From positions 35,278,001-35,342,000 of the forward strand of contig CATNEN010000038.1 in assembly GCA_950097015.1 (NCBI GenBank): a stretch of 64,000 nucleotides of DNA, read 5' to 3'. Shown here in pieces: positions 19,633 to 48,054 of the stretch. This DNA comes from Macrostomum hystrix. Its lineage: Eukaryota; Animalia; Platyhelminthes. Under the pieces are notes generated by a model. It was given only the letters and a program-made list of their open reading frames with translations. It made no database searches and was not told the DNA's origin. How positions within the stretch are numbered: position 1 is the stretch's first letter; each line of letters opens with the position of its first letter. The position numbers were made by a program, and so were the translations under genes.

Positions 19633-22206
19633 TTATAGGCTGCAGTTGCTGACAATCTGCTGCAGGACAACCGAAACTATCAGAAGGAACAGAGCACCAG
19701 ACACTTGATGGCCGGTGTTGCACAGGTTAGATACGCAGCAGTATGAATAATCCAGTACCTCAAGGCAGAACGGAACAGCGCTTCTAGCGACAATTCCTTT
19801 CACAACCAATTTCTGTTTGTTAAATTGTTAAAAAGTAAATTCTATTCAGAGGTTGCATCGGAAAGATTTAGGGATTAGAAATCATATTCATTTGGTGGCA
19901 GACTCAAGTCTATGTGCATGGCCTCCTAAAGATTCCTACTCAGGGACTTTGGTGTGAGAGGCAAACGTGCGAACAAATCTCTCCCTCAGCCCCAGATAAT
20001 GAAAAGTTTAGTTTGATATTTTAACCACAAGTAAAATAAATTTTTGTGTTTTTTCGAATCCAATTGACAGGACTGCAAACTTACTGGACTGAGATTCTTC
20101 AGGACTGCAAAGCTACTGGACTAAGATTCGTCAGGACTGCAAAGCTACTGGACTGGGATTCTTCAGGACAGCGGATCTACTGGGCTGAGATTCTTCAGGA
20201 CTGCAAAGCTTCTGGACTGAGATTCTTCAGGACTGCAAACTTACTGGACTGAGATTCTTCAGGACTGCAAAGCTACCGGACTGAGATTCTTCAGGACTGC
20301 AAAGCTACTGGACTGAGATTCTTCAGGACTGCAAAGCTACTGGACTGAGATTCTTCAGGACTGCAAAGCTATGGACTGAGATTCTTTAGGACTGCAAAGC
20401 TACTGGACTAAGATTCTTCAGGACTGCGGATCTACTGGAATGAGATTCTTCAGGACTGCGGATCTACTGGAATGAGATTCTTCAGGACTGCGGATCTACT
20501 GGAATGAGATTCTTCAGGACTGCGGATCTACTGGACTGAGATTCTTCAGAACTGCAAAGCTTCTGGACTGAGATTCTTCAGGACTGCAAACTTACTGGAC
20601 TGAGATTCTTCAGGACTGCAAAGCTACTGGACTGAGATTCTTCAGGACTGCAAAGCTATGGACTGAGATTCTTTAGGACTGCAAAGCTACTGGACTAAGA
20701 TTCTTCAGGACTGCGGATCTAATGGAATGAGATTCTTCAGGACTGCGGATCTACTGGAATGAGATTCTTCAGGACTGCGGATCTACTGGAATGAGATTCT
20801 TCAGGACTGCGGATCTACTGGACTGAGATTCTTCAGGACTGCAAAGCTTCTGGACTGAGATTCTTCAGGACTGCAAACTTACTGGACTGAGATTCTTCAG
20901 GACTGGAAACTTACTGGACTGAGATTCTTCAGGACTGCAAAGCTACTGGACTGAGATTCTTCAGGACTGCAAACTTACTGGACTGAGATTCTTCAGGACT
21001 GCAAAGCTACCGGACTGAGATTCTTCAGGACTGCAAAGCTACTGGACTGAGATTCTTCAGGACTGCAAAGCTACTGGACTGAGATTCTTCAGGACTGCAA
21101 AGCTACTGGACGGAGATTCGTCAGGACTGCAAAGCTACTGGACTGAGATTCGTCAGGACTGCAAAGCTACTGGACTGAGATTCTTCAGGACTACGAATCT
21201 ACTGGACTGAGATTCATTAGGACTACGAATCTGCTGGACTGAGATTCTTTAGGACTACAAATCTACTGGACTGAGATTCTTTAGGACTACAAATCTACTG
21301 GACTGAGATTCTTTAGGACTACAAATCTACTGGACTGAGATTCTTTAGGACTACAAATCTACTGGACTGAGATTCGTCAGGACTACGAATCTACTGGACT
21401 GAGATTCTTTAGGACTACCAATCTATTGGACTGAGATTCTTTAGGACTACGAATCTACTGGACTGAGATTCTTTAGGACTACGAATCTACTGGACTGAGA
21501 TTCTTTAGGACTACCAATCTACTGGACTGAGATTCTTTAGGACTACAAATCTACTGGACTGAGATTCTTTAGGACTACGAATCTACTGGACTGAGATTCT
21601 TTAGGACTACGAATCTACTGGACTGAGATTCTTTAGGACTACGAATCTACTGGACTGAGATTCTTTAGGACTACGAATCTACTGGACTGAGATTCTTTAG
21701 GACTACGAATCTACTGGACTGAGATTCTTTAGGACTACGAATCTACTGGACTGAGATTCTTTAGGACTACGAATCTACTTGACTGAGATTCTTTAGGACT
21801 ACGAATCTACTGGACTGAGATTCTTTAGGACTACGAATCTACTGGACTGAGATTCTTTAGGACTACGAATCTACTGGACTGAGATTCTTTAGGACTACGA
21901 ATCTACTGGACTGAGATTGCGTTTATGTCCACTGCAGCGCTTGTTTTTAGGTTCGTGATACATGACTCACAAGGCAGTATGAACTCTCTATTATTTCGGT
22001 TGTATCGTCCACACTATTGCAGCCTATGCAGACATAGCACTTTGCGGCGTTGGTTCCAGCGATGCAAACTAAAATGTTAAAAATCGTTGTATGAAGCTTT
22101 AAAACTAATGAAAGCTGAATTTCTAAATTGAAAAAAAATGATGAGACTGTCTTGACTAACATGCAGACAGTATTCCGATCGAAAGAATGGAACGAAGTTT
22201 CAACAT
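19633..22206 (-). CDS. Ly6/uPAR three-finger protein 'A', 3 exons (22206-22161, 22068-21971, 19812-19633), 107 aa, predicted GPI anchor
   Basis: MLKLRSILSIGILSA|FCIAGTNAAKCYVCIGCNSVDDTTEIIESSYCL|KLVVKGIVARSAVPFCLEVLDYSYCCVSNLCNTGHQVSGALFLLIVSVVLQQIVSNCSL*. Canonical GT-AG sites and an intact frame. Confidence 0.88.
20068..21918. repeat. 32-bp satellite in intron 2 of gene A
   Basis: About 58 copies; from about 21190 onward a homogenised variant (GGACTACGAATCTACT...TTCTTTA) takes over. Confidence 0.96.
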
Positions 22207-23299
22207 TTTTCTAGCTTCCAGTAAGGCTTGGACAGGTGCTGTAGAAGAAACTCGCCCTGCTTTTAAAAAATTTAGCGATAAATATTCCTTTAGCTTGATG
22301 CGAAATTAAAGTAGAGAAACTGCAGCAAGTTATAAACACACCGAAAGTTATTCAGAATAAACTTTAGTGCTGGAGGAAGTGTACAACGTTGTCTAGAAAT
22401 GACGAAACAGCTTGTCGCTAACTTTTATGAGCAGTGGAGTCTAATGGGAATAAACAGGGTATGTTCAGCGAATGAATATTTGGTAAATATGATTTCGCTG
22501 AATTAACGCATTTGTCAGACTATGTGGATAGTAGCGTGGCTACTCCAGGTTAGTGAACGCGGCGGGGGAGGACCGCTGCCCCACCCCAGCCTTTGGGGGT
22601 GTTTTAAGCGCCATGCGCGGGCCTCCTGCGCACGGCTGCCCTATCACGGCGTGCTCAATGTCTTATCTTTATCCATGATTTTTTACTCCCTAATCTTTCT
22701 TACCGCTGTTAAATAAAACTTTTTCTTATTGCTAAAAATGCTTTCGCACCTCACAGGGGTTTTGTTCCCCGCTTTGTTCGCTTTGCTCACCACTGCCTCG
22801 CCTTCGCCTTACTTCCGCGGCGCTGTTCACAAAATCCTCCTAATTGATTTCTTCTCATTACCGATGATTAACTTTACTTTACTTTAGTTTCAGCTTCCAT
22901 TTCAATTCATTAGTTTTGTCGTGCCGTAACAACAGGGAGAACTATTGTTTTAAGATAGCTCAGCTAAGAAAAATACAAACCTAATTAATGGCCACTCTGG
23001 CCCTTTATATTATTTTGAACATGACTGACGGCAACGTGCCGCCCAAAACATAATGTGAATATAGCGCAATCAACCAGAGTAACGTGCCGTATGTGGACGC
23101 TACGAAGAACAAGTACATTAGTTAAGAAGTACCTTAGTTTAGCAGACAGACACGCACAGTACAGCAGAGATAGTTAATGATTATGAACATAGTTAACTAG
23201 TCAAGTGGTGCCACAGTTTTTTATACTTATTGTCTTTGGCCTTAATACAGGCTTTTAACTCAGCTAAAAACTACATATCCGCAAGTGCAATGTCCTCAA

Positions 23300-26200
23300 A
23301 CAAATATGAAATACATAAAGTCAAATCAAATGCGCTTGGCGGCCACACATTAAATTCATTGTCTCCGACCATTTTGGTAGCAGAGCGACTAAATCCGGCC
23401 CAAGCGACAAGTTTGATCCACGCCATGTCGAATCCATGCGCATTCGTCAGTACGACCGACAGATGCTCAGAGGATACAGATACTTGTATTTACTTCTTGT
23501 TCAGTCGGCTGTGCAAATGACTCTGCATCGAAGACTTTGCCTTCAGCCTCAGTAGAAGCAGTAGAATTGAGCTCCTTGAACTCTGACGGCTCCTTGGCCT
23601 GTGAAGTCTCCTGGTCTAGAGTCCTGGTAGTGATGTCGGATTGGTGCACTAACCGGGCTCGATCCAACCGGGAATTTGGTTGGGATTCGATTTCACACGA
23701 ATGTACACAGGCTTAGCAGATTCTGTTGGTGGGTGAAACTCTGTTGCAGAAGTAGAAAAGAGCGTGCGCGGAATTTTCAGGATGACCTGGCCAGCAGGAA
23801 TGGCTCCGATTGCAGATGGTGTGGTGTTTTGTGTCAGGCAGAACGCGTTGATTGAATGGTCCACATCACCAGCTGATCTGTTTAGCGACAGCTTGAGCTC
23901 TTGAATCACTCGCTCATTGTCGACCAATGCCGCTGCGTGGCGTGGTGGCGTTCCTGCGACTCTTCGTTGACAAGCCTGGCCTCGGAGCGGCCTCTGTGAA
24001 CTTCTCCCGGCCTCTGCTCAGCCCGCTTGGACATCCTGGACATCTGGTGATGTCCAGGAGGCGCTAAAACGTGTTGTATTTGGTTTTGTTTTACGAAGCG
24101 CTGGAATTCTTCCGAACGAAAATTAGTTCCGTTGTCTAAGAGAAAAAACTTGGGCAAACCAACATTACTTAAAACTCCTCCTGCAAGCCTTGATGACAGA
24201 AGAAGATGCGAGGAAATTGCGAACTTGCACATCAATCCAGCAAGAAAATACGAGGAACTTAAAGTATTGGTACATCGCAATGTCGATGTGAACACGTTCA
24301 AGAAATTCCTAAGCATCCGTCCAACTGGCTAGGTTGGCATTGGGCTTCTTGAGTGCGTGTAGCTGGCATGTGGCGCATCTGTTAATGTGCAAGTCCATGG
24401 ATGGCCACAAGAAATACTGCCGTCCAAGACGAATCGTTCGGATGATGCTGCGATGCTGCTCGTGGAGAAATTTCAGAATTTTGAGTCTCATTGCAACGGG
24501 AGGAGCGATTGGAATGTAGACGATTCCATTCTGGATGGTGTATTCGGATCGGTCTTAACTATACGGCTGCATAGATCGTCCTTGAGCGTCTAAAATGCCA
24601 GGCAAATAAGTGCGAGTTCTGTGACTTTGCAAAAGACTTTATTCTCTCACTGTTCATCTTCGGCTTGAAGAGCCAGTCTCTTCGTCAAAAGTTATTTGCC
24701 AAGGACCAGTTCACGCTCGAAACTTCGAGTGACTGAATCTCAGGATCCTTGGAAGCAGAAATTCTTTGAAGAAGTGTCTGTCAGATTGTCTGAACTCCTG
24801 AAGACTGTTAATCTCTTGCATGTTTACACAGCTAGTCCTTGCGGCTTCTCGACAACTTGGCAATCTCAATTGTCTCTCCTTGGGGCGAGCATTGGGTCGA
24901 AAGGAGCGAGCATTGTCTCTCCTTTCGAATAGCACACCCTGTAGTTTTATGAGCTTAGAGTAAGAGCCCAACGCTGCGGACGAGCAGAAACACTCTCTGA
25001 AGTGTTCCTTGGGTTAAAGATGTACATCAGGGGCGATGGTCAGATAGAATCAGATAGCTCTCAGGTGACCTGATTTACCACACGAGAAACATGCGCCCTT
25101 TAGCTGCATCCTGCGAGAAATTGTTGAAAGTATTTTACTCCTTTAACTATTGCCAACGCCTCGCGCTCGATGTTAGAGTAGTTGGACTCGGCATGCGTCA
25201 GCATCTGACTAGCGAGCCAGACAGCTCGCCTTTGGTTCTCGTCATATAAGAGCACGAATCCAATGCCATCCTTTGACGCATCGCAAGTGAGATATAGCGG
25301 CTTCGAGATGTCGTACGGAACTACTACTCTAGCAATGTTGGCTTTTAATTTGTTAAATGCCAGTCTATGAGTCTCTGTGCAACTCAATTGTACGTTCTTC
25401 ATGGAAAAGTTCTTGCAAAAGAGTTCATAATTTCAAAGGGTGGATATAGCACTTCGCAGCTTGTCCTTGTCCCTTGGCTCTGGTAGCTCAGTCAAAGCCT
25501 CCATCCGAGTACAGTTGTCCGTATTAAAGTATGAAGCCGAGGAACTTGACACTTTCATTGCACTTTTGCGACTTTTGGGTGTTGATTCTGAAGCCATACT
25601 GCGAAAATCGGTTCTTTACGAGGGACAGAACTCGGTGATGCTCTTTCAGACCTGGTGTTCCGAACATATCGTCCTGGTACGAAGCGACGTTCGGTCGAAT
25701 GTCGCGGGGAAGTTTATCCATCACTTCTTGGAAGATCAACGGTGCCGCAGAGATTCCGAATTGCACTCGACAATAGTCTTCCTTGAGAATGGTAATGATC
25801 GGGCTGGGTAGCACATGCTTTCGAATGACACTCCGGATTTCAGGCGAAAGCTTGCTCTGAATTTGTCTGCCTCATTGACAGAGACATGAGAGCACTTTAA
25901 GCTTGAGTCCAAGTCAGGTATCAGGTGCAGTGCTCAATTGAAGTTCAAAACGAGAATACTGTGCGTGTCCGGCTCTCAAACGAAAATGTCTCCGACTGCG
26001 CTCTTCTCGCTGTTGTCCTTGACCGTAGCATACCTCAGCACTCCGAGAGCAGCTGCCTGTGAGCCCCCACACTTTCAGAGACTTTGTGTTGTCACTTTGG
26101 ATTTTAAGGCCGGTCCTTTCATAGTGATGGCAGTGATTTGGCTCCCAGAGTCGACGCAGATAGTAGTTTTCAAATCACCAATTCGAAGCTCTTCAACCAA

Positions 26201-27045
26201 AGGATACTACTTGCCGTTCCGAACTCAACAGATAGAATGCTGCCGGGTTGATCACGTTTGAGGCTTTAGTTTGAGGCTGGCATGCAGTGCACGGGTTTTG
26301 CAGCCAATCGGCATGCGGATGCAATGTGCCCTTGCTTTCCGAACTTGTTGCAGACTGCCTGACTGAATCTGCAAGCGGTTCTCAGGTGACCTGATTTACC
26401 ACACGAGAAACATGCGCCCTTTGAGGCTTGATTGGCGCCAGAAACGGAGTTAGCGCCGGCTTCTGAGTCTGGTTTTCGGACCGCCTTTGAAACGGCCGTC
26501 GTGAATTTGAAAGCTGCTTCCTTCCGATGCAGTAGGGGTACAGTGGTGATGGTTTTCTGGGGTTCGGTAGCGACGTGCACGGATTCTGATAGCTTCCTGA
26601 ACGGAAGTTTCGAGCGTGAACTGGTCCTTGGCAAATAACTTTTGACGAAGAGACTGGCTCTTCAAGCCGAAGATGAACAGTGAGAGAATAAAGTCGTTAG
26701 CAAAGTCACAGAACTCGCACTTATTTGCCTGGCATTTTAGACGCTCAAGGAAAGTCGAAATCAATTCAGCAGACTTTTGTGTCTTAAAATGCAGGACATT
26801 CCATACGTATTGCAGGAGTCTTTTTGGCTTGAGGTGCTCCAGGATCATCTTTTCATTGCTTCCAAGGTGCAGTTGTTCGCGCTGATGCCAGTAGGCTTCA
26901 TCGAAGTTTCAACTAGAGTAAGTCACAACTGTAATTGGGTTAGGAGCTTTGGTACACCGGTATCGGGACTAATTCCTCTGATTCTGAAGCCAGGAGAATT
27001 AACTAAATAGACTAGTTAGTTCAGTTGATCCTCGTCGTCGTGTTA
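23300..27045 (-). mobile_element. Degenerate Gypsy/Ty3 LTR retrotransposon internal region (gag-PR-RT-RH-IN)
   Basis: Gag with zinc knuckle [14 protein letters not shown]; protease CVDSGS (about 26145); RT FGISAAPLIFQ...YQDD; RNase H LTCDASKDGIG...YSNIEREALAI; integrase HHCC (LHEQH...CATCQ) and DNGTNF. Domain order is Gypsy-type. Many stops and frameshifts. A PBS-like CGACGAGGAT lies at about 27030; LTRs were not identified. Confidence 0.9.
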
Positions 27046-27214
27046 TAAGTCTAAGACGTAGGAATTTCTAGTGTTGTGCGAAATCGTAGCAGCAATTATA
27101 TTGATAAGCGCTTATATAACAATATATAACAGTCCGCAATCCAGGCAGCACAGCCCTTTTAACGATTCAATGAGTGCCTTGTCTTTGGTTAGCACGTTAA
27201 ATTTAATAACTGAA

Positions 27215-27538
27215 GGATGGCTGCGGGCAATGGCAAATCATTTCGTAACACTAGACCTGCAGCTAGTGAGAAAGCGATTCTTCCCATTTCGCTGACTCCT
27301 GAGCACACACGCACACAAATACCGTACGTTGGCACTCAAACACAGTTGAATACATCTATACCCCGACTTTCTCATCGTCAGGGAGTGTACACTCTCATTG
27401 TGCCTTGGATGTTGGTCCTCGGGGTCGTATGCCTTCAGTCCGCGGCTGCGCCTAAGAATAATGTGGCCTCGCCGCGAAATCGAGCTCAGGGACCTTGGTG
27501 CGAGAGGCAAACACGTTAACCGATCTGCCACCGCTCAC
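27215..27538 (-). mobile_element. tRNA-SINE copy
   Basis: Reverse-complement match to 3878-4235. Confidence 0.75.
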
Positions 27539-27866
27539 CTGCTTCATAGCATTCGCTACTACTAGTTTTATCGGTTTCGCCAGGAAAGAAAATTATTTAA
27601 CTTTAGTAATGCTTTTTAATTCGTTTTCGTATCTTACAAAATTTTTGCTATTAGCGGGGCTAAAGAGTAAAAATGGGCTTGAACTTGCGAGGCTTAAAAA
27701 AGAACCAATTTATTATTCAACAATGTTACATCTTATTCGCAATGATACTCTCTAAGTACTCGTACTATAGTATTTTCGTCAGTTTTTTAGGCATCACAGA
27801 ACTATCGGATATATTGTTTAATAAAATTTAGCAACAAAGTAGTTAAATTATAAATGCAACATTTGT

Positions 27867-27950
27867 TTACAGGCTGCATCTGCTGACAAACTGCTGCAGG
27901 ATGGTCAGGACAACCGAAGCTATCAGAAGGAACTGAGCACCAGACACTTG
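27867..27950 (-). pseudogene. Ly6 gene remnant: only the hydrophobic-tail half of exon 3, fused directly to satellite
   Basis: Reads QVSGAQFLLIASVVLTILQQFVSRCSL*. The flank 27480-27830 is homologous to the 3' flanks of genes B and C. Confidence 0.8.
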
Positions 27951-28388
27951 ACTGCAAAGCTACTGGACTGAGAATCTTCAGGACTGCAAAGCTACTGGAC
28001 TGAGATTCTTCAGGACTGCAAAGCTACTGGACCGAGATTCTTCAGGACTGCAAAGCTACTGGACTGAGATTATTCAGGACTGCAAAGCTACTGGACTGAG
28101 ATTCTTCAGGACTGCAAAGCTACTGGACTGAGATTATTCAGGACTGCAAAGCTACTGGACTGAGATTCTTCAGGACTGCAAAGCTACTGGACTGAGATTA
28201 TTCAGGACTGCAAAGCTACTGGACTGAGATTATTCAGGACTGCAAAGCTACTGGACTGAGATTCTTCAGGACTGCAAAGCTACTGGACTGAGATTCTTCA
28301 GGACTGCAAAGCTACTGGACTGAGATTCTTCAGGACTGCAAAGCTACTGGACTGAGATTCTTCAGGACTGCAAAGCTACTGGACTGAG
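27950..28388. repeat. 32-bp satellite array of the remnant Ly6 gene
   Basis: About 14 copies. Confidence 0.95.
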
Positions 28389-28699
28389 TGCCTAACTTTT
28401 CCAGTCTTTTGATCCTTGGACGTGCTGGACTCCGTAAGTCGCTGGAAAAAAAATAGGATAAAGCCGCTAATGGTGTGCTTGCTGTAACTTAAATAAAGCT
28501 TGAGTTCAGTTCTGTAGGGGGTGTGTATGGATAAATGTGTTATCGAGCGAATGAGCGAACTTTGAGAACTGTTGATATTGAGGGACGCAGCCGCTCCCTA
28601 CAGTTTGAGTTAGTGTACGAGCGTCATCGGAAACAGTCAGCAATGGTATGATTTTGTGCCACAGACAACATTTGTGCGGACCACCCGGAGTGTGGTCCG

Positions 28700-31340: not shown

Positions 31341-31996
31341 TCACCGGACCTTCCAGCCCTGCGGCGCGGTGAGACCTTAGGTCAAAATTTTAGCTCAAAC
31401 CTTAAGTCGAACCATTCACTCATGAGCCGAAGCATGAGTACACATTACGACCAGAGGCTCTGGATGGGTCGTCCAGCGCTCTTGCCCATTCAATCCGGCT
31501 GCCCTTAAACTTGAGCTGCTGGCACATCATGAAGACATTCAGTCCGTATATAAGTGCGTTGCTCCAAGTTTGATGGAAACTCCGTTTTTCTAAGCCGGCT
31601 GTTTCTTAAATTGTGTTCTTTTGGCTAGAATTTTTTAATATAAAATATGCTAATCGGTTGTTGTTTCGACTATAGTTTTTACTTTTAGCATCCTTGTCCC
31701 CCCTTTTTCTTCATTCTATTCTTTCCTCCATGCTGCCACCACAAGTGTTGTCTGTGGCATCAAATCATACCATTGCTGAACGTTTCGGATGACGCTCGTA
31801 CACTCACTCCAACTGTCTGGAGCGGCTGCATCCCTCCAAATCTACAGTTCTTTAAGTTCGTTCATTCGTTTAAAGTGCAATATTCTACTGGACCCCTGCC
31901 TGCTCTCTCCTCCCCTATCGCCGTCGTCACCACTCGGATTAACCATTGGCTGGCCTCGAAGCACAAGGAAAGGTGGATCAAGACCGCCATTAGTCG

Positions 31997-32188
31997 TAGA
32001 GAGAAGGCTTGAGGCTTGTCGTGCAATTACGCCCTTGAGGGCCAACCTCCAAGGCACAGTGCGAGGGTACACTGCCTGACGAATAAAATACACTGACTGC
32101 CAAATAATAATGTGGCCTCGCCGCGGAATCGAGCTCAGGGACCTTGGTGCGAGAGGCAAACACTTTAACCGCTCTACCACCACTCACC
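31997..32188. mobile_element. Composite SINE fragments (plus-strand body joined to minus-strand head)
   Basis: Matches 3878-4235 in both orientations. Confidence 0.65.
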
Positions 32189-32609: not shown

Positions 32610-34270
32610 TTATGGGCTCCAGCTGCTGACAAACTGCTGCAGGATGGTCAGGACAACCGAAGCTATCAGAAGGAACAGAGCACCAGACACTTGATGGCCG
32701 GTGTTGCACAGGTCAGATTGGCAGCATGAAAAGATACCCTCTATCTTGTTGCAGTTACGAACAGCGCCCCGATCGACAGATCGTATCTTATACTTTTTCT
32801 GTTTGTTAAATTGTTAAAAAATTGATTCTATTCAGAGGTTGCATCGGAAAGATATAGGGATTAGAAATCATATTCATTTGGTGGCAGACTCAAGTCTATG
32901 TGCACGGCCTCCAAAAGATTCCAGCACAGGGACCTTGGTATGGGAGGCAAACGTGCGAACAAATCTCTCCCTCAGCCGCAGATAATGAGAAGTTTAGTTT
33001 GATATTTAAACCACAAGCAAAAAAAGTTTGTATTTTTTTAAATCCTAATGACAGGACTGCGAAGCTACTTAACCGAGATTCTTCGGGACTGCAAAGCTAC
33101 TGGACTGAGATTCTTCAGGACTGCAAAGCTACTAGAATGAGATTCTTCAGGACTGCAAAGCTATGGACTGAGATTCTTCAGGACTGCAAAGCTATGGACT
33201 GAGATTCTTCAGGACTGCAAAGCTATGGACTGAGATTCTTCAGGACTGCAAAGCTATGGACTGAGATTCTTCAGGACTGCAAAGCTATGGACTGAGATTC
33301 TTCAGGACTGCAAAGCTATGGACTGAGATTCTTCAGGACTGCAAAGCTATGGACTGAGATTCTTCAGGACTGCAAAGCTACTGGACTAAGATTCTTCAGG
33401 ACTGCAAAGCTACTGGACTGAGATTCTTCAGGACTGCAAAGCTACAGAACTGAGATTCTTCAGGACTGCAAACTTACTGGACTGAGATTCTTCAGGACTG
33501 CAAACTTACTGGACTGAGATTCTTCAGGACTGCAAAGCTATGAACTGAGATTCTTCAGGACTGCAAAGCTATGAACTGAGATTCTTCAGGACTGCAAAGC
33601 TACTGGACTAAGATTCTTCAGGACTGCAAAGCTACTGGACTGAGATTCTTTAGAGATTCTTCAGGACTGCAAAGCTACAGAACTGAGATTCTTCAGGACT
33701 GCGGATCTACTGGACTGAGATTCTTCAGGACTGCGGATCTGCTGGACTGAGATTCTTCAGGACTGCAAAGCTACTGGAATAAGATGATTAAGGACTGCAA
33801 AGCTACTGGAATAAGATGATTAAGGACTGCAAAGCTACTGGAATAAGATGATTAAGGACTGCAAAGCTACTGGAATAAGATGATTAAGGACTGCAAAGCT
33901 ACTGGAATAAGATGATTAAGGACTACAGATTAAGCTATGGACTCAGATTCTTTAGGACTACGAAGCTACTGGACTGAGATTGCGCTTTTGTCCACTGCAG
34001 CACATGTTTTTAGGTTCGTGATACATGACTCACAAAGCAGTAAAGTCCTTCCATTGTTTTGGTTTTTTCGTCCACACTATTGCAATCTTGGCAGGAATAG
34101 CACTTGACGGCGTTGGTTCCAGCGATGCAAACTAAAATGTTGAATTTCGTGCTAGCAAGCATAAATTATGAAAGCTTAATTTCAAAATTGAAAATAGAAA
34201 AATAATGATAACGACTTGACTAACTTGCAGACAGTATTCCGATCCACAGTATTGAACGAAGTTTCAACAT
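32610..34270 (-). CDS. Ly6/uPAR three-finger protein 'B', 3 exons (34270-34225, 34131-34034, 32798-32610), 110 aa
   Basis: MLKLRSILWIGILSA|ICIAGTNAVKCYSCQDCNSVDEKTKTMEGLYCF|KKYKIRSVDRGAVRNCNKIEGIFSCCQSDLCNTGHQVSGALFLLIASVVLTILQQFVSSWSP*. Canonical splice sites. Confidence 0.88.
33052..33981. repeat. 32-bp satellite in intron 2 of gene B
   Basis: About 29 copies, including 30-bp and GGAATAAGATGATTAA variants. Confidence 0.95.
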
Positions 34271-36786: not shown

Positions 36787-39700
36787 ATGTTGAAACCTCG
36801 TTCAATACTGTGGATCGGAATACTGTCTGCAAGTTAGTCAAGTCGTTATCATTATTTTTTCCTTTTTCAATTTTGAAATTAAGCTTTCATAAATTAAGCT
36901 TGCTAGCACGAAATTCAACATTTTAGTTTGCATCGCTGGAACCAACGCCATCAAGTGCTATTCCTGCCAACATTGCCTAAGAGAAGACATTGACCGTAGA
37001 ACCAACACAATGGAAGGACTTTACTGTGTTGTGAGTCTTGTATCACGAACCTAAAAACATGTGCTGCAGTGGACAAAAGCGCAATCTCAGTCCAGTAGCT
37101 TTGCAGCCCTGAAGAATCTCAGTCCATAGCTTTGCAGTCCTGAAGAATCTCATTCCGGTAGCTTTACAGCCCTGAAGAATCTCAGTCCATAGCTTTGCAG
37201 TCCTAAAGAATCTCAGTCCAGTAGCTTTGCAGTCCTTAATCATCTTATTCCAGTAGCTTTGCAGTCGTGACAACAACAACAAAATACGCTAGCCCCAAAT
37301 TTCAGGGAGGCAGCGTCAGATGGTGCGCCGCAGAGCCAGCGCGCGAACATGGTCCGCGCCGGTGGCAGTGTCGGGCGCCCCGGCGTCGCTCAGCAGGCAG
37401 TCGACGTAGCGGCGGGTCCGAGCCTGGCCGCGCCTGAACGGGCCCTGCAGGGTGAGCAGCAGGACGTCCTGGGCGGGCTGGCGGCAGTAGCTCTCGGCCC
37501 GAATAACGTGGCCCGCTAGTCGAAGTCGCCGCTGGTGCAGGATGGTGGACGGGCGTTGCAGATCGGCTCTCTCGTACAGAGACTTAGTCCCGACGCTCTC
37601 GTCAGCTTGAAAGGCCGCACGGAGCAGCCCCGAGTGCGCCGAGTCCAACTGCCGCTCCAGCGTAGCCGTCAGCGTCCACGACTCGGCGTTGTACAGCAGG
37701 ACGGTCTCGACCACCGCCTGCCACAGCCGAGCCCTCTGGCGGTCAGGCTGCGCTGTGGACTGGAGGACGGCCCGGATCGAACGTTAGGCCGCCCATGCGA
37801 GTCCTCTGCGCCGCCGGATGTCGTCTTCCACGTTGGGCACCAGACCGCCGACGTAAGTGAACCGCTGGCAGCGTGCGAGCGAGATAATCTGCCTGTCTGC
37901 GCCGCGGCACGTCATGTCCTCTGGGATGTCAGCCGGCACGGTCAGCACCTCGGTCTTAAGCGTGTTGATCACTAGGCTGACGCTTGATGCCTCCTCAGCC
38001 AACCTGTCAATATGGCGCTGGGCACCTTCGACAGTTGAGGACAGGAGGGCGAGGTCGTCAGCTTCAGCTTGAGGCGCTTCTCATCGTGGCGGCGACCCAT
38101 GCGTCTGCGGAGCAGGAAGCCGTCTTCAGCCGAGGGGAGCGCAGTCCGAAGCACCCAGTACAGGAGAAGCACGAAGAGGAACGGCGCCAGCGTGTCGCCC
38201 CGCAGCACTCCTGACGAGGTGGCAAACAGGTCGGACAGGCCGTCCGCCGTAACACAGCAGCACGCGTGTCGCGATACAGCGACATGATAGCGGCGACTAG
38301 CTGCTCCGGGACCCGGTAGGCACGAAGGACGAGTGGGAGCGCGGCCCTCGACACTGAGTAAAACGCCTTGCGGAAGTCGACAAACACTATGATCTGCGTT
38401 GACTGGCGCATGCGCGCCTCCTCGATGACACGGCGGAGTGCGAGGATCTAGGTCACTGTACCGCGCCGCGACCGGAACCCGTTCTGCATCGACTGCAGGC
38501 GATCGAGAAGCAGTCGGTTGAAAAGCTTCGTGGTGCAGGACATAAGCGAGATCCCTCGGTGATCTTCTTTCCGCGTTGTCCCGGCCTTATTCGGGATCGG
38601 CACGATGTGTGCTACGGTCCACTCGGTGGGCGCAGGGGCGCCGACGAGCACGCGGTTCATGGCGCCTGTGACTTGGGAAGCCACACAGCGGAGCCGCAGC
38701 GCCTCGACCGGAACCTCGTCGGGGCCGAGCGCCTTGCCGCCAGATGTTCTCCGAGCGAACCGCACAACATCCTCCACGGTGACTGGGCTGGTGCGAAAAT
38801 CCTCCTCAGCTGGCAGGGCCGTGTCCGTCGGCAGTGCAAAACTGGGTGGCAGCGGGGGCGAGGGTGCGTTTTCAATGCCGGCGAAGAAGTCGCGCAATTC
38901 ATTCCTGCGCTCCTCCGGAGTGTCGCCGGTCAGATTTAGCGCCACACGCCTCTTGCGCCCCGTCAGGGTCCGAACGGTCGTCCACACTGCGCAGCTCCTC
39001 ACGTCGGGGCCAGCTGCTGCGATTGACTGGATGGCGTCGTCGACTGCGGCCTGCTGCCGCGTGTCCAAAAGACGCGCGAGCGCCTCCTCGGCGTCACCAG
39101 TGGGCCGTCGGGAACTTCGGAGTCGCTCGATCTTCAGCCGCGCCTGCCTGATCGTTGGATCGCTCTGCCAGACTGGCTGCGTTCGCTCCGCCGGTCGCAT
39201 CAGCGGGACCGTCTTCTCAGCTGCAGTTCTCACGGCAGTGCTGATGTCGGCATACTCCGCCTCGCGCTGGTTTCCAAGCGCGCCAGCGAAGGCGCCCGCG
39301 AATTGGTACTTTACGCGGGGGTCCCACAAGGCACGATAGTAGCGCCGTGGCCGCTGCTTCGGAGGTCGGTAGAGCGGGTCGTTGAGCCGCAGGTCGCAGA
39401 GCAAGTCGGTGGTCAGAACGGAGAGCCAGCGGAGCCATGGTGTCGCAGTTGATGACGCGGTGGTGCTCGCGAGCGCGAACCAGCACATGATCGAGTTGCG
39501 CCAGCCGCCTCGTGGCATTCCGCCCACGCGCGTTCCGTCGTCTCCTCTTGCAGCCCGCGAAGGTGACCAGGCGGGCCGAAGGCTTGCGGAAACGGGAATT
39601 GACATCAGGTCCAGCCTTTCTAGCAGGTTCTCCAGCGCATCCGTGTTGGCTTTCTCGCGTCCCGTGACGAAAGGCGATCGCTCGAACCTACGTGGTAGGT

Positions 39701-41599
39701 CCGTACGGCGCGTTTAGGTCTCGGAGCGCCGCAAGCTGTCTTCCAGCTGTCCGGCCAGAAACTCGAAAAAGGCGAGAGCTTCGTCCGGGTGGGCAGCCGT
39801 AGGGGCGAACGCGCAGAAAAGCCGGATGCAGCGAGCGCGCAGGCGCAGGTCAACCCACAGCAGACGCGGGGAGAGTGGGGCGCAGTGCACGCTCTGCCGA
39901 AGACGCGGTCCGATCAGCACGCCGACGCCGCCACGCCCGCGGCCGTCTACCGACGTGTACAAGAGGCTCCATCCGGCTCCAAGGTCCTCGTTTTGAAGGC
40001 CTGGCTCAGCCACGATAGAGACCTCCTGCAGCATTATGAGGTCCAGCTGTAGGTCGTGGGCCAGCTGGACGAGCAGAATGCGACGCCAGGGGGGCCTTCA
40101 GGGTCCGGCAGTTCAGCGTGCCGAGCCTCAGGCGACCACCTGGTACGGCTAGGGCCAGATGACGTTGGGACTCATGGGCCACGGCGCCACCCTGCGGATC
40201 CGATTCAGAAGCGGCAGAGACCCGGGACGACTGGCGTCTTGAAGCACCGCGAAGTCGCCCACGCCGGTTGCGCTGCGCTATTCCTCTGCTCGTCCCTGAT
40301 GTGCCGATCTTGGCTGCCGCAGCCGAGGCGCGGCCGTCCGAGCCAACCGAGGTCATCTGCAGCCTGATGGGCTGACCACGATGCCAGGAGGTGTCGACAC
40401 TTTTTGCACAGATGTGCAAATATAATGGCTCTGCAAATATAATAGCTCTGCAAATATAATGGCTCCAATTATGGCTCCAATGGACGTCTTCCTGAAAAAT
40501 CTCAATCCAGTAGCTTTGCAGTCCTGAAGAATCTCATTCCAGTAGCATTGCAGTCCTTAATCATCTTATTCCAGTAGCTTTGCAGTCCTGAAGAATCTCA
40601 GTGCCGTAGCTTTGAAGTCCTGAAGAATCTCAGTCCAGTAGATCCGCAGTCCTGAAGAATCTCAGTCCAGTAGCTTTGCAGTCCTGAAGAATCTCAGTCC
40701 AGTAGCTTTGCACTCCTGAAGAATCTCAGTCCAGTAAGTTTGCAGTCCTGAAGAATCTCAGTCCAGTAGCTTTGCAGTCCCGAAGAATCTCAGTGCCGTA
40801 GCTTTGCAGCCCTGAAGAATCTCAGTCCAGTAGATCCGCAGTCCTGAAGAATCTCAGTCCAGTAGCTTTGCAGTCCTGAAGAATCTCAGTCCAGTAGATC
40901 CGCAGTCCTGAAGAATCTCAGTCCAGTAGCTTTGCAGTCCTGAAGAATCTCATTCCAGTAGCTTTGCAGTCCTGAAGAATCTCAGTCCAGTAGCTTTGCA
41001 GTCCTGAAGAATCTCAGTCCAGTAAGTTTGCAGTCCTGAAGAATCTCAGTCCAGTAGCTTTGCAGTCCCGAAGAATCTCAGTTAAGTAGCTTTGCAGTCC
41101 TGAAGAATCTCATTCCAGTAGCTTTGCAGTCCCGAAGAATCTCAGTTAAGTAGCTTTGCAGTCCTGTCATAAGGATTCAAAAAAATACAAAAATTTATTT
41201 TGCTCGTGGTTAAAATGTCAAACTAAACTTTCCATTATCTGGGGCTGAGGGAGAGATTTGTTCGCACGTTTGCCTCCCACACCAAGATCCCTGTGCTGGA
41301 ATCTTTGGGAGGCCATGCACATAGACTTGAGTCTGCCACCAAATGAATATGATTTCTAATCCTTTAATCATCACGATGTAACCTCTGAATAGAATCAACT
41401 TTTCAACAAACAGAAAGCGATTTTTAGAGAACGCGTCAGTCGAACCGCTGCTCACGTTTGCAAGAAGGAAAAGAATTATTACTGCTGCCAAACTGACCTG
41501 TGCAACACCGGCCATCAAGTGTCTGGTGCTCTGTTCCTTCTGATAGCTTCGGTTGTCCTGAACATCCTGCAGCAGTTTGTCAGCAGCTGGAGCCTTTAA
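36787..41599 (+). CDS. Ly6/uPAR three-finger protein 'C', 3 exons (36787-36832, 36927-37030, 41414-41599), 111 aa
   Basis: MLKPRSILWIGILSA|ICIAGTNAIKCYSCQHCLREDIDRRTNTMEGLYCV|KAIFRERVSRTAAHVCKKEKNYYCCQTDLCNTGHQVSGALFLLIASVVLNILQQFVSSWSL*. Canonical splice sites. Confidence 0.87.
37084..41166. repeat. 32-bp satellite in intron 2 of gene C (37084-37268 and 40490-41166), split by an RTE-like LINE
   Basis: Satellite units are present on both sides of the insertion. Confidence 0.9.
37269..40400 (-). mobile_element. Near full-length degenerate RTE-like non-LTR retrotransposon (APE + RT)
   Basis: RLGTLNCRTL, LQE, GRGGVGVLI and CAFAPT (APE); HRGISLMSCTTKLFNR, FVDFRKAF, RGDTLAPFLF and VETVLLYNAESWTL (RT and C-terminus); short (GTT)n 3' tail at about 37270; GC-rich; stops and frameshifts. 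Confidence 0.88.
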
Positions 41600-42127
41600 T
41601 GCAATTTCCCATGGATGATTTTCTAGTTTCCGGGCTTCGATTTATTAAACAATTTATCCGCGTGTTCTGTGCAGCCTAAAAATAATGACTAAAACACCAC
41701 AGTGCTTATGGAGTATAATCGAGAATAAGATTAAACTGTTAAAGAATAAAATGTTTGTTTTTGTAAGTCTAGCAAATTTAATCCCATTTTTTCTCTACAG
41801 CCCCGCAATCGAATATTTTTTGTATGCAACTAATTTTTTCCATTGTGTAAGTGTACCGGCAAATACAATTGAAATGGACAAATTTCACGAGTAAAGGATT
41901 AAAGCGTTGCTAAAGTTAAATACTGCTCATAATTATTTTCCTGGCGAATCCGATAACTACGCTCGTAGTAGCGAACGCTATGAAGCAGGTGAGTGGTGGT
42001 AGAGCGTTTAAAGTGTTTGCCTCTCGCACGAAGGTCCCTGAGCTCCAAGGCTAAATTATTTTTAGACGCAGCCGCAGACAAATAATCTGCGGCTGTCTTT
42101 GTCGTATAAGACAAAGGGCTTGGGCCC

Positions 42128-45100
42128 ACTAGAAAAAATCCTAGGGGGCCGCTAGAGGATTCTTAGGGGATTGGGGGAATACTAGGGGAAGTAGAAAACT
42201 GCAGAATATATATTGTTTAGTATTATAATACAATAAATCAATGCTCTATGTTTGTTAGATGCGTCTTTTATAGTTAAGTCTTTGTGGGTTATTTGTCGGC
42301 GTTCAAGGGGCTGTACCCTTAGGGGTCGCCCGCTAAATACACCACAGTCGTCCGCTAAACAAGGAAAAAACGTGAATTGCATTTTAACAATACATATATA
42401 TAAAATATTGGTGGCTTAAATACTAACCTAAAAAAACAAATTATTTGACTTTTGCCTACTACTTTTTAAAATTCAAGTTACTTCTCATGATTTTTTGTTT
42501 TACTTACACTACTTTTCCAACTGAACCCTGCGATTTATCGAACGTTTCAAGGCACCCGCACATGGCAACAGGTTATTATGTAGCCCAGAAGTAGATATTC
42601 ATCAGATAAAATAGAAATATTATAGCTATTCTAGCTCTCAACCAATATTATTTGAATAACAGTTGGTCTGTTAAACAGGCTCTGTTCTCTTTATTGTCAT
42701 TATCATTCTAATATCAGGTACCTGGACACTTCGTCATCTTACAACTTCGTCATCCAGATGACGATCTGTCCAATATCTCAGAGGGTGGATGACGAAGAGA
42801 CTTAGACTTGTGGACACTTTGTCATCTATAAAACAAAAGTTTTCAAAGTTAGAACAGAACCACCCCTCCCCACCTCCTCACATAGTGTTGGCACCTTTCT
42901 TTCAACTCTTATAATGAAATCAGTTTTGACACCTCTTTTTGGCCTTTTAAGACGTGAAGTGTGTGACTCTGCCCCACCACCACCCTACCCTCACTTTATT
43001 GATGACGAGCTTAATTGCTTATTTGTTATTAGTAGATGACGAACTGACCAAACTTTAAAGCATGCCAATTGGCTGGATGACGAATTTGTAAGATGACGAA
43101 GTTGTAAGATGACGAAGTGTCTAGGATCCCTAATATCATGGCCTATGGGCCTTATAATTTTTGCTATACCTAAGGCTAAGCCTAGGGCCTACTTATACAA
43201 AATGGTTACGCTTTGCTAGGCCTACTACTAGCCTACTGCATCAAGTAGCTGAACTTATTGTTATTTAAATTATAACTTACTGAGCAGCTGAGCCTCAGAG
43301 CCTGGTTAGGTAGGCCTAGCCTAGCCTAATAAAAATAGACTAGCTAGATTGTTTGTTTGAAAAGTTTGCTAGTTAAGCTATCTATCTATGCCCTCAGTTG
43401 ATATTTTGAAGCAACCAGTTTCATTGGCTATCATTCTTGATTTATTTTTCTAGGCTTTGAAGGTCAATCTGTGTGCTATTTTGTGCTATATGTGCATTGT
43501 CTGTGTCGTATATAATACTGTTTCTCAGTGTTTCTATGTGTTGCTTCTTAGAAAGGAGCCATGCCATGGTATACCCCTTGCTTTTGCACTGCATGTGCCA
43601 AGAACCATAGTATATGCCATGGTTTTGTATCACATGCACCAGGAACATTGTTATATACAATGATTGTGCAAAGAATGTACCAGGGATCCTTCATGTGAAA
43701 TGGAATTTTCTATCCTATTGCCATTGGCCTTCCTGACTATAGTCTATGCTAAATTAGGCATACTTTTAAGAATACGCATTACATTACATGTAAACTATTT
43801 TGTACTACAAATTTAGACTTAAGTTTGCATGTTAAGCTACAAATCAAAGTAAAGGTAAATCTGAAAAGAATGATTTGTATTTGGCAAAGTCACTAAGTGC
43901 AAAATTCTTCAAAGGCAAGAGAGGCCTAAATTTGAAAAGTTTGAAAATTTGAAATTTGAAAAAATGATCAAAATTTTAGCTATCCCTAGCTTCAAAATAG
44001 ATTTTGTCAATAATCTATTGACAATAATCTAGCTATCCCTAGCTTCAAAATAGATTTTGTCAATAAATGTTGTCATATTAAAATGAGCTTGTAGTTTTGC
44101 TTAAAATATATAAGCTCCCAAATTAGTATTATTCAAGATCCCAAATGATTAAGTTCAAACTATATTTTTTAGAAATTAAATGAATCTTATTTGTATATCT
44201 TTAGATTTCAAGTAAATATTACAGAGACTTCAGAGATTATAATATACAAAATTCATGCATACCTTATATATTGTAACAATCTTAACAAAATTATGCAAAA
44301 CATGATAGTCTTCATTCTGTCAAACTGGCTTCAGTGCGATTTTAATCAAACTGATACTGAGATCAAAAATATGTTTGCTGGGCCCTTGGAAGAATTAGTT
44401 CGAGATGCAACCCACAAGGTCCATCCTAACGCAGATGACAAAGCAGTGAGGAAGGCTGTTGCTGCAGCTTTGAAAAATTCTCGCTACAGACTTGGTGGGC
44501 ACAACAAGAGACAAGTTCGCTCTTTGTCATACGGCGAATCTAATGGTTGAGAATGAGGGAGAACATTCTCGCAGGACTCAGCAACGCTGCTCTTGAAAAT
44601 TACTTCATCCAAGGATTGAAAGTGATTCTGATTGACCTGAGGACTTTATTTTTCATCATTTTTCTATAGCGTTGTATCACCCTGTTCCATTTTTGCAATT
44701 ATTTTTTGTGGTTTTGTTGTGCACCGTTTTTTGAGTCTAGTTATTTATTAACAAATGAGACTTGAGTTTGACAGAAGACCTCTAGGACTAAAGCAAAGCG
44801 AGCAAAAGAAACAAGGCTCGAAATCTGAGTTAAAAACAAAAGTAGATTCTGTTCTATATGAGTATGATTTAAACAAACTGTCAGATCTGCTTGCAGTTAT
44901 TGAATATTTCATGTTATAAGTGCGTAGAATTTTGTGTCTTGTGAACATGAAATATGTCAATTTTCAATCTATTTCTTATAATATTTTCATTTGTTACTTA
45001 TGTTAAAGTGAATGCTAATTATATTAAATTAAGCTAGCATACATAGCATACATTTTGTAAGAACAATTGGTAGCCATTTCAGCTTATTTCTTAAAGTGCA

Positions 45101-46050: not shown

Positions 46051-47816
46051 TTTTAGTATAGCGCAGCAGATTTATGTGGTAGCTAGTCGAAAGGGCTCCT
46101 TCTAAATTCATTATTTCTGTATGCGAAATCTTATCTCTAGAGTGCAGAATTTTAATTCAGTTGACTGTCATTCAAATTTTCGAAATCGTGGCATTTTAAT
46201 TTTCAATTTAATACAGGCTTATTGTTTGAGTTTCAAAATTCTGATTTGTGACTTACTACTATGAGTAGGCTGTGTGAGTGGATTTCATGTTAGTGTCTTC
46301 GGGTTATGCGGTTACCGTAGGATGCCACGGGCTGTCTGATGGGTCTCTAGTATGAACGCTGGCTATTGGTGTCGCGGGAGGCCTGCGTACCTGGGTCCGA
46401 AAGTGCCGCATAACTTTGACCAAGTCTGACTTAGGTGAGGACCTGTTAGGAAGCTGGGATCCGGAACCCAACCGCAACCCAGTTAGGCAGCCGCGAGTCT
46501 AACGACACGCGAATACAGCTGCGCCCCGAAGCTGTGCTTAGGCTTTTTTGGACCCTAAGGACAGGCTAGAATCTAGTCGGCACGACTCTCTTAGTGTAAA
46601 GGGAGTCTTGGAGAGGCTAAACAGAGGACCGGGCATTGTCCCTACGGCCTCCTAACCGAGCGAGTTCCCAGGCTTATGGATCCTGGATTCCACGGTCTCG
46701 TAAATCGCGAGGGGAGCCCCTGGCAATGCAGCCGGGAAACGATGACTCCGCCGAGCGAGTCGGGGATTATCCCTTCCTTGTGTGCTCTATTGAGTCGTGT
46801 GCTTTCTGAGGTGGGGTGGGTAGGCCAAGGCCTAGGACAGAGCACTCCATAGTCTACAGAAGCAGGTGGCATGAGAGTGATGTGGTAAATCTGCCCTACG
46901 CAGTAAATCCGGCTAGTCCTAGATCCGCCGTTCACTCTGGGCAGGCTGTACCTATAGTGTAACAGGTCGCTATAGGGTTGCAGAACGAGTGCTAAGTTAA
47001 AACCTAGACTTCTATGTCCCAAGCTTGAGTGCGCGCGAGCAGTTGTTGATGGCCAAGACTGGAAGCAAAGCTAGCCAGGTCCCCGGGCCCTATTTCTTTT
47101 CTTATTTATTTATTCTTTGTTACCCTTATCGACCACTGCATCGCAGTGTTGTTTATTGGGGCCTAGGAATTCTCCTTATCGTTCATTAACGTAGAGGTGA
47201 CGCAAGGTCGTCAGGCTCTTTCCCTTTTCACGACCCCAAGTCGTGCTCTGAGCAGTGCTCAACCCCGCCTCCTTCTTTTCCCCATTGTCGCTGTTTAGCG
47301 TCACCCCCCTCTCTGACAAGCAAAATCCTCGTCCCTCTTTTGGTCGAAATGTCCGACCAGGAAAATGAGGTCTTCGAGACAATCGGCGCCCCGCGTCTAA
47401 TTGGAGGTAGGGCTGTCTCCGCGGAGAGGAAGTCTTGCGTAAGATTTTTGATAAATGCAGCACTAGGGCTTGCACCTTCCTTGTGTAGAGGATGTGTAGA
47501 AAATCTCACAGTACAGGATGTGTACTGTGAGATTTTAAACTTTTTTACTTAAAACACTCGAGTAGTCTTAAATTTGACCAAGTAGCAGTCTTGCCCATAG
47601 AAATCTCTCAGTATTTCAGACGGCTCAAATGGACCGAACAAACGATTAAGAAATATGTTCTCCAGTGTTAAACTTGCTGTCGTTTCTTGCCTTGAATTTG
47701 GCATCAAGACAAAGCAATATTTCATCAGTTCATCAGTCATTCCGGTACCGCTAAGTTTTGTAACGGCAACGCATATTTCGTCAACCATTCTTCAAGCCTT
47801 ACTGGAAGCTAAAAAA

Positions 47817-48054
47817 ATGTTGAAACTTCGTTCAATACTGTGGATCGGAATACTGTCTGCAAGTTAGTCGAGTCGATATCATTATTTTTTCCATTTTCAA
47901 TTTTGAAATTAAGCTTTCATAAAAAAAGCTTGCTAGCACGAAATTCAACATTTTAGTTTGCATCGCTGAAACCAACGCCGTCAAGTGCTATTCCTGCTTT
48001 ATTTGCGATAGTGTTGACAGTAAAACCGGCATACTGGAAGGAACTTACTGCGCT
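47817..48054 (+). CDS. Ly6/uPAR three-finger protein 'D', exons 1-2 (47817-47862, 47957-48054); exon 3 expected beyond the window
   Basis: MLKLRSILWIGILSA|ICIAETNAVKCYSCFICDSVDSKTGILEGTYCA followed by a GTGAGT donor, then the same intron start as A-C and the satellite. Confidence 0.8.

Follow-up and report, generated by a model that had tools for sequence, protein, structure and literature searches.

A cluster of duplicated, spliced genes in Macrostomum hystrix is predicted from its sequence to encode small, GPI-anchored, Ly6-like cell-surface proteins with eight cysteines, and the mature domains of these proteins are three to four times as divergent as the neighbouring introns. Positive selection after duplication very probably drove the exposed finger residues apart. 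The fuller account that we favour, in which eight-cysteine surface proteins diverge under positive selection around a partner that likely acts in mating, is in our judgement probable. The window (the whole 64-kb stretch of DNA that was analysed) holds three intact three-exon genes, A, B and C, and gene D, which has exons 1 and 2 only, exon 3 being absent from the 64 kb. It also contains fragment E, which codes for a tail and nothing else, and F, an older paralog. Intron 1 is in phase 1; intron 2 is in phase 0 and lies one codon past Cys5 in A–D and in F. The coding features, with the public contigs that touch them (named by run), are as follows.

15992..16210, minus strand: older paralog F, exon 3; intron position and eight-cysteine pattern as in A–C
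17233..17350, minus strand: older paralog F, exon 2 (putative acceptor)
19633..19812, minus strand: gene A, exon 3 (loops 2–3, CCxxxxCN, hydrophobic tail); tail in an X1 contig
21971..22068, minus strand: gene A, exon 2 (end of signal, Cys1–3, Cys5)
22161..22206, minus strand: gene A, exon 1 (start of signal peptide); matches an A-type spliced contig of run X1
27867..28388, minus strand: fragment E, satellite (27950–28388) joined directly to a tail-coding piece, without mature exons
32610..32798, minus strand: gene B, exon 3; contigs of X5, X9 and X13 start at 32798
34034..34131, minus strand: gene B, exon 2; the loose contig end at 32798 (X5, X9) consists of its final 30 bases
34225..34270, minus strand: gene B, exon 1
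36787..36832, plus strand: gene C, exon 1; similarity to B and D ends about 80 bases upstream
36927..37030, plus strand: gene C, exon 2, with a two-codon insertion
41414..41599, plus strand: gene C, exon 3; a C-like loop is seen in run X13
47817..47862, plus strand: gene D, exon 1
47957..48054, plus strand: gene D, exon 2

The coding sequence of paralog F is in frame and its intron carries no satellite; its exon 1 was not located in the window. Public contigs show genes A and B spliced as modelled, together with additional paralogs, and carry a spliced leader that matches that of Macrostomum lignano. Spliced A-type and B-type contigs reproduce the modelled lengths exactly, with 168 and 129 letters between, and contigs show the exact exon 2/3 junction. 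The tail piece of the X1 contig has exactly the four differences by which A departs from C. Exon 3 of B is identical in three runs (X5, X9 and X13, filed under two organism codes and, in part, as a sediment sample), a fourth run being without coverage there, so an arms race at this exon seems not to be ongoing. Run X13 holds both B-like and C-like variants, and in one of its contigs exon 3 of B, without change, follows an exon 2 end in which four residues are replaced. Contigs record presence only; among the matches listed for X1, X5, X9 and X11, none reaches the variable stretch within exon 3 of C or the 3′ half of exon 2 in D.

A preliminary description of this locus had called the mature domain hypervariable between nearly identical flanks, and pairwise counts confirm this, with qualifications for the flanks of A and for intron 2. 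Base differences reach 31–38% in the mature domain and 7–12% in the introns. Set against unique intron DNA, the mature part differs at 56/171 versus 45/394 sites between A and B (Fisher p 5e-9), at 63/168 versus 47/389 between A and C (p 5e-11) and at 52/168 versus 28/391 between B and C (p 3e-12). Near identity of exon 1 and the flanks holds for B, C and D (0–1/46 in exon 1, 4–7/93–94 in intron 1) and fails for A (17–18/88–89 in intron 1, 122–128/~300 in the 3′ flank); in the 3′ flank B and C differ at 35/395 sites (9%) and A and B at 128/302, which places A at about 40%. Intron 2 is similar in its unique flanks (8–10% different) and dissimilar in its satellite core, where lengths are very unequal. 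At the protein level, identity is 20–22/23 in the signal, 21–22/27 (pairs with A) or 28/30 (B–C) in the tail, and 22/56 to 29/56 in the mature part. The loop peptides and common tail quoted in that description were found in A at 19812 (minus), B at 32798 (minus) and C at 41414 (plus), K, V, R, A and C are indeed the sole residues that A–C share in exon 3 before CC, and the two-codon insertion in C exon 2 is present. Twenty positions are invariant, including all eight cysteines and the Asn, and the frame of the protein is therefore constrained. The contrast between mature domain and introns likely arises because selection favours new recognition surfaces.

Codon models were fitted with our own MG94 implementation rather than PAML, on a hand-made codon alignment of four sequences to which D contributes exon 2 only. 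Site models reject neutrality (M1a/M2a, 2dL 24.0; M7/M8, 2dL 26.8), with an omega of 5.2 on 67% of 59 aligned mature codons. The result is stable on two alternative trees (2dL 25.0 and 24.5), after trimming of the indel-flanking loops to 41 codons (2dL 24.9) and for each exon tested singly (p 0.007 and 0.0008). Permitting double and triple hits leaves a nominal 2dL of 16.3 for selection, and the neutral branch lengths of this multi-hit model (0.075, 0.034, 0.046 and 0.045) agree with those obtained under intron calibration (0.079, 0.039, 0.045 and 0.047). None of 31 null simulations on mosaic trees and none of 31 with heavy multiple hits attained the observed value, the closest of the latter giving 23.8 against 24.0. 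Counting methods return a dN/dS of just 1.3–1.5 for the A–C pairs. Diversifying selection, as the earlier reading proposed, is thus supported by site models, under which omega in the mature domain clearly exceeds 1. That reading had named two contrary outcomes, a dN/dS of 1 or less with equal divergence of mature exons and introns, or proof that conversion limited to the flanks explains the contrast, and neither was obtained. A neutral domain with a free rate, 6.2 times that of the introns, is the prediction of conversion in the flanks only, and it fitted worse than selection by a 2dL of 22.8 (p 1e-5).

Segmental, conversion-like exchange among the copies is evident. Gene A is the deviating copy at 35/38 variable 5′ sites and 55/67 in the 3′ flank, but at 12/34 within the 3′ portion of intron 2 (p 3e-6 and 2e-5). 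This exchange does not explain the amino-acid excess. A history without selection, in which old copies drift neutrally in their loops while conversion resets signal, introns and tail, can draw on the mosaic just described, on a signal and tail less diverged than the introns with omega about 1, and on a synonymous rate in the mature part that may be raised, the estimate being 2.2 times the intron rate (interval about 1–4, p 0.044). We regard it as largely refuted and very improbable: besides the failure of the free-rate neutral domain, only 3/20 invariant codons contain a synonymous difference, and in all three pairs among A–C the first two codon positions are enriched for differences. A local mutator, or block replacement that rewrites loop-coding DNA, has been proposed for conotoxins and snake toxins. 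Here 17–20 of 56–57 codons differ at two or three positions, and a contig of the sediment run has four differences across the four consecutive codons with which exon 2 ends, as such a process could produce. Selection nonetheless persists once multi-base changes are permitted, transition/transversion counts are similar in introns and mature parts, and B exon 3 is without variant in three runs; a mutator is accordingly very unlikely. Exon 2 of B was also considered as an A/C recombinant, and this was rejected, as the D sequence favours changes on the C branch as the simpler history.

The proteins resemble the Ly6/uPAR family (CD59, SmLy6/SmCD59, FhLy6/FgLy6 and the Quiver family, PF17064) in their signal-like N-terminus, C1xxC2, CCxxxxCN and hydrophobic tail, and in their three exons and small cluster. 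The exon layout, a signal exon followed by two domain exons, is that of single-domain LU proteins. Both the C1-xx-C2 motif and the Asn after the last cysteine are found in A, B, C and F, and D has C1-xx-C2; the C2xxC3 spacing is that of flatworm CD59-like proteins (PMC3812095). They depart from the family in a mature domain of 57–58 residues and in a phase 0 intron after Cys5, the LU domain being typically split in phase 1, at the loop 2 tip (PMC6600238). A, B, C and F also have eight cysteines against the ten of the LU pattern (1-5, 2-3, 4-6, 7-8, 9-10). In alignment with a ten-cysteine protein, P0002, the Cys4 and Cys6 sites hold other residues, Cys6 being an invariant Ala in A–C. Of the bridges by which the TFPD superfamily is defined (B1, B2 and B4; PMC3812095), the cysteines of B1 and B4 are present, as are those of B3, and those of B2 (4-6) are absent, which places the proteins outside that definition. 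With eight cysteines and no 4-6 bridge, they are therefore Ly6-like rather than canonical members. In excerpts of the LU review (PMC6600238), bridge 2-3 is named as often lost and 7-8 as rarely lost, with 4-6 not among the losses named, which makes the cluster of interest for the fold too.

Database comparisons point to the same family at a distance. Pfam CD59 is matched at E 3e-4 and 3e-3, and PF25152 scores 17.6 and 20.8 bits with exon 3 of B and C, below its cut-off of 33.9, and does not match A, single exons being the queries; 0/5 exon 2 pieces matched in the profile scan. Atlas neighbours are QVR and Ly6-type clusters (0.90–0.91). An exon 3 profile run with HMMER against 1.84 billion representatives gave two distant matches and no close relative: P0002, a QVR-like protein (E 7e-4), and P0001, a lamprey protein rejected as a homolog for sharing little beyond the CC..CN motif. 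Word-based searches with B exon 3 (110–2000 aa; 15 candidates) and with the exon 3 alignment (32–126 aa; 335 candidates) yielded no homolog, and a PDB sequence search gave 24 matches, the best at E 0.11. For a neighbouring GPCR gene, no homolog appeared at E 1e-30, a threshold too strict to inform.

We propose that the signal peptide, assigned by eye, would be cleaved before the first cysteine and that a GPI anchor would replace the tail past the CN motif. The tail comprises 27–30 residues, with a best 19-residue hydropathy of 2.0–2.15 and no charged cytoplasmic end. Four disulfides (1-5, 2-3, 7-8, 9-10) would hold the three-finger core, and absence of the 4-6 bridge may loosen loop 2. Copies would be duplicated, homogenised and deleted by unequal exchange within the intron 2 satellite or close to it while selection holds the finger-coding blocks distinct, and their divergence is predicted to let each copy bind a different partner.

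As to what that partner is, mating (the surface of sperm, partner or egg) is our first guess, held tentatively. Three-finger proteins have repeatedly been co-opted for reproduction (PMC8830517) and the genus Macrostomum has fast-evolving reproduction genes (PMC7336406, PMC8662610); flatworm Ly6 proteins, in the published excerpts, are tegumental and not reproductive (PMC8763315), which counts against mating. The same selection might instead diversify a coat of the epidermis or gut as a defence against microbes, parasites or predators. In trematodes, Ly6 proteins form expanded families in the tegument (PMC8763315, PMC3812095), the diversity here lies between paralogs whose copies are born and lost, and mature charge varies (K+R 4, 10 and 11, D+E 6, 7 and 7); nothing found separates defence from mating, and we hold defence to be possible though doubtful. 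A partner outside both mating and microbes or parasites is rather unlikely. Allorecognition, also offered by the preliminary description, would require a self/non-self locus with many alleles under balancing selection. A variable ectodomain, predicted to be surface-anchored, and the B-like and C-like variants in X13 are in keeping with this; the variants of the window, however, are paralogs at separate loci. The invariance of B exon 3 across three of four runs weakens it further, though only slightly because contigs drop rare variants, and we consider allorecognition very improbable.

Accelerated evolution of this kind is itself well documented for three-finger toxins and for the pheromones of salamanders, and in snake toxins exons evolve faster than introns. 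Here it appears in a predicted membrane-type family of a free-living flatworm. Bouncer is not known to form a cluster of hypervariable paralogs. With Bouncer and SPACA4 the proteins share a single LU-type domain and a GPI anchor, both predicted in our case, and those two act in fertilisation recognition (PMC8830517, PMC6600238). Snake three-finger toxins share duplication and positive selection, and loss of one disulfide has been proposed to free their diversification (PMC6600238). Those toxins are secreted without an anchor and retain 4-6, the elapid types having lost 2-3, whereas the flatworm proteins keep 2-3 and the tail and lose 4-6; sequence likeness to toxins is weak (PDB matches at E 0.19–9.7) and nothing suggests a venom role. 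Plethodontid salamander PMF is alike in duplication, a positively selected coding part and conserved non-coding sequence (PMC6487043), but it acts as a secreted pheromone and its UTRs share about 98% identity, while a GPI-type tail is kept here and 3′ flanks diverge as given above.

The family is absent from the titles and abstract openings of published work found on Macrostomum with Ly6 or CD59, and the supplements of PMC5977470 and PMC5173321 gave no match for its motifs or family names. This flatworm is a laboratory model for sexual conflict in which RNAi and transgenes work (PMC5173321, PMC5977470). The partner is thus directly testable, since the common tail would allow one RNAi for the whole family and the loops would serve as copy-specific probes. 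Should their role prove reproductive, the proteins would become candidates for molecules of recognition or conflict in a hermaphrodite and would offer invertebrates a counterpart of Bouncer and PMF.

Intron 2 of every young copy contains a 32-bp satellite, whose core measures 0.9 kb at its shortest and, in D, over 15.9 kb.

18451..19284, minus strand: solo array of the satellite downstream of A, 25 units
20068..21918, minus strand: satellite in gene A intron 2, 58 units
33052..33981, minus strand: satellite in gene B intron 2, 29 units
37083..41166, plus strand: core of gene C intron 2, satellite at 37083–37266 and 40490–41166, split by an insertion
48107..64000, plus strand: satellite at the position of D intron 2, 496 units in higher-order blocks, running off the window

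This satellite may drive exchange and copy loss. A bolder reading, which we think unlikely, is a Macrostomum-specific mating-recognition family on a three-finger scaffold without the 4-6 bridge, with the satellite as a recombination hub that reassorts exon 2 (loop 1) and exon 3 (loops 2–3) for selection. It is compatible with a difference in branch lengths between exons 2 and 3 (2dL 10.7, p 0.014), the joined contig of X13, the breakpoint of fragment E, which falls inside satellite, and the confinement of the arrays to genes, every array of the window lying within or beside the Ly6-like genes. The insertion in gene C intron 2 is a 3.2-kb, GC-rich, frame-broken, LINE-like element on the minus strand. 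Pfam gave no match in the one piece of it that was scanned, and by eye it contains what we take to be reverse-transcriptase-like motifs.

The young Ly6-like paralogs A, B and C are intact genes of three exons each (107, 110 and 111 codons, respectively); the minus strand carries A and B, and the plus strand C and the fourth young paralog, D. In A–D, a 46-base exon 1 (signal start) is followed by a phase-1 intron of 92–94 bases, an exon 2 (signal end and loop 1) of 98 bases in A, B and D and 104 in C, and a phase-0 intron 2; exon 3 encodes loops 2–3 and the hydrophobic tail. Within the window, D comprises exons 1–2 only. Two copies were absent from the preliminary description: E, a tail-coding piece joined straight to satellite at 27950, and F (17350–15992), an older paralog sharing the intron position and cysteine pattern of A–C.

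The mature part of the protein, between signal peptide and tail, has diverged far more than its surroundings: 31–38% of sites differ in mature-coding DNA versus 7–12% in unique intron DNA (p 5e-9 to 3e-12). The flanks had been described as nearly identical, which holds for B, C and D but goes too far for A, with differences of approximately 20% in intron 1 and approximately 40% in the 3′ flank. Path counting, which places synonymous steps within multi-hit codons, gives a dN/dS of only 1.3–1.5 for A–C pairs. Site models were run in our own MG94-type code (not PAML) on 59 aligned mature codons of A–D and gave 2dL values of 24.0 (M1a/M2a), 26.8 (M7/M8, the comparison proposed earlier) and 24.0 (M8a/M8), with an omega of 5.2 on 67% of codons. 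The signal is kept with the other two trees, without the indel-adjoining loops and in each exon singly. In a joint fit with the introns, synonymous change in the mature part runs at 2.2 times the intron rate (interval approximately 1–4, p 0.044), and omega ranges from 2.7 to 10 across that interval. Allowing double and triple hits gives a test value of 16.3 (p 3e-4, chi-square, not bootstrapped), and brings the neutral branch lengths to those calibrated on introns. Null simulations reached 24.0 in 0/31 cases with mosaic trees (maximum 10.2) and in 0/31 with heavy multi-hit change; the maximum of the latter, 23.8, means that the plain site-model test can be affected by multi-base changes. The diversifying selection proposed for the mature domain is supported by the site-model and multi-hit results together.

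Gene conversion confined to the flanks, the competing account of the contrast, is not upheld as its whole cause: a flank-conversion model with a neutral domain and free rate fits worse than selection by 22.8. For signal and tail, omega is approximately 1 and the branches are very short, a pattern more suggestive of homogenisation than of purifying selection. In counts that exclude sites where A, B and C all differ, the deviating copy is A at 35/38 variable 5′ sites and at 55/67 in the first 200 bases of the 3′ flank, whereas towards the 3′ end of intron 2 it is A at 12/34 sites, B at 10 and C at 12 (p 3e-6 and 2e-5). A and B diverge by 0.21 upstream but by 0.09 within intron 2 (p 4e-4), and the best-fitting branch lengths differ between exons 2 and 3 (p 0.014). 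Thus, intron 2 is likely the centre of conversion-like exchange, which would act besides selection rather than replacing it.

All young copies (A–E) share one 32-bp repeat at a common intron 2 position, and within the window all arrays sit inside or adjoining Ly6-like genes.

Units of the 32-bp satellite in each array
A: 58
B: 29
C: 26, divided by a 3.2-kb LINE-like insertion
E: 14
D: at least 496
Solo array downstream of A: 25

Four variant units are common to A and B, and four to B and the larger C array; the D array holds mostly variants of its own. D intron 2 leads into satellite occupying 48107–64000, where the repeat has expanded to >15.9 kb and is organised in long higher-order blocks; either D is a broken copy or its gene contains a giant satellite intron.

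Transcript evidence comes from contigs of five public sequencing runs (X1, X5, X9, X11 and the sediment run X13) among 13 matching runs in four studies. Contigs of X9 and X11 skip intron 1 at GT..AG. Others connect the tail with exon 1 or exon 2 across 168 and 129 letters, the exact spliced lengths of A and B, and contigs of X5 and X9 begin at the exon 3 acceptor of B with a loose end matching the final 30 bases of B exon 2. The satellite-bearing intron 2 is therefore removed by splicing. An X1 contig carries the 5′ UTR of A and the four differences of A from C.

Pfam CD59 matches of single exons were all sub-threshold, Atlas neighbours fell in Ly6 and QVR clusters (0.90–0.91), and PDB matches were weak (best CD59, E 0.11). 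A full HMMER search returned two proteins, the relevant one a ten-cysteine QVR-like protein (E 7e-4). The LU consensus has ten cysteines paired 1–5, 2–3, 4–6, 7–8 and 9–10, and loss of the 2–3 bridge is common and of 7–8 rare, in the accessible portion of PMC6600238; the 4–6 bridge is compulsory in another family definition (PMC3812095, in excerpt), and trematode Ly6 screens demand ten cysteines (PMC8763315, in excerpt). Aligned to the QVR-like protein, A–C and F have only eight, retaining Cys1, 2, 3, 5, 7, 8, 9, 10 and the final Asn and jointly missing Cys4 and Cys6. Judged by sequence, the genes are thus Ly6-derived but outside strict membership, and are predicted to work like GPI-anchored Ly6 proteins.

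The proteins would be secreted and then GPI anchored (tail hydropathy 2.0–2.15), with a four-disulfide core that displays three variable loops. Copies are likely gained and deleted through the satellite intron; selection would hold the loop-coding blocks distinct, and exchange would blend their flanks. Such a selection and divergence pattern is already known from three-finger toxins and PMF. We tentatively favour a partner in mating, because three-finger proteins have been recruited several times to gametes and pheromones (PMC8830517, PMC6487043) and reproduction genes are fast-evolving in Macrostomum (PMC7336406, PMC8662610), as far as the accessible text of these sources goes. Epidermal defence is an alternative of nearly equal plausibility. 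The accessible text of a seminal-fluid screen (PMC5977470) makes no mention of Ly6 or GPI, and its supplement holds no family motif. The family was not found in literature searches (subscription papers and bioRxiv supplements, which may hold expression data, lay outside their scope), in the paper supplements examined or among protein representatives in the full HMMER search.

Mature B exon 3 is unchanged in three of four runs (X5, X9, X13), X11 having no contig there; this invariance is a point against an active arms race, so that most of the diversity seems to be between paralogs. B tail and UTR differ at 3/327 bases in X9. An X13 contig (depth 2.2) joins unchanged B exon 3 to an exon 2 end with 4/30 bases changed, replacing four successive residues; an allele, gene shuffling or a chimera formed in the library could each account for it. 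Other loose ends represent at least two more expressed paralogs (runs X5, X9, X11, X13): that of X5 has a different end of loop 2 and that of X9 a loop 3 longer by two residues, both from outside the window, and X13 has a C-like loop with 3/30 bases changed. X11 also yields a variant tail followed by a different 3′ UTR.

Between C and D, a short trans-spliced transcript (44334–44758, plus strand) occurs in X1, X5 and X9. The X1 contig is identical to the window there, preceded by 16 foreign letters found at the end of the spliced leader of Macrostomum lignano (PMC5173321, in excerpt), which points to Macrostomum as the likely source of the window; the longest surrounding reading frame has approximately 125 codons (44173–44550).

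Between head-to-head B and C lies a DUF3504 frame (35154–35723, minus strand; Pfam, E 4e-6), probably a transposon remnant, DUF3504 being presumably tied to tyrosine-recombinase elements. The upstream likeness of C to B and D stops near this frame, so the promoter that C originally had may be lost.

Other features of the window
615–1709, plus: single-exon rhodopsin-family GPCR (Pfam 7tm_1, E 1e-31)
1748–2782: 15-bp minisatellite behind the GPCR
8099–8716, minus: exon of a divergent UFD1-like gene (Pfam matches sub-threshold)
9519–9980, plus: small secreted-type WSC-domain protein (Pfam, E 3e-11)
23650–26910: integrase-core and gag-like remnants between A and E
24579–24726 and 26604–26751: 148-bp inverted pair (98.6%) within these remnants
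28413–31380: retroelement-like remnant adjoining the satellite of E
28413–28473 and 31271–31330: 61-bp direct repeat in the retroelement-like remnant
3879–4219, 7460–7691, 12432–12663, 15238–15595, 16858–17143, 27204–27533 and 31995–32181: dispersed repeat of approximately 350 bp, in many copies

F intron 2 also contains the dispersed repeat, probably a SINE, as do the stretches behind B, C and E.
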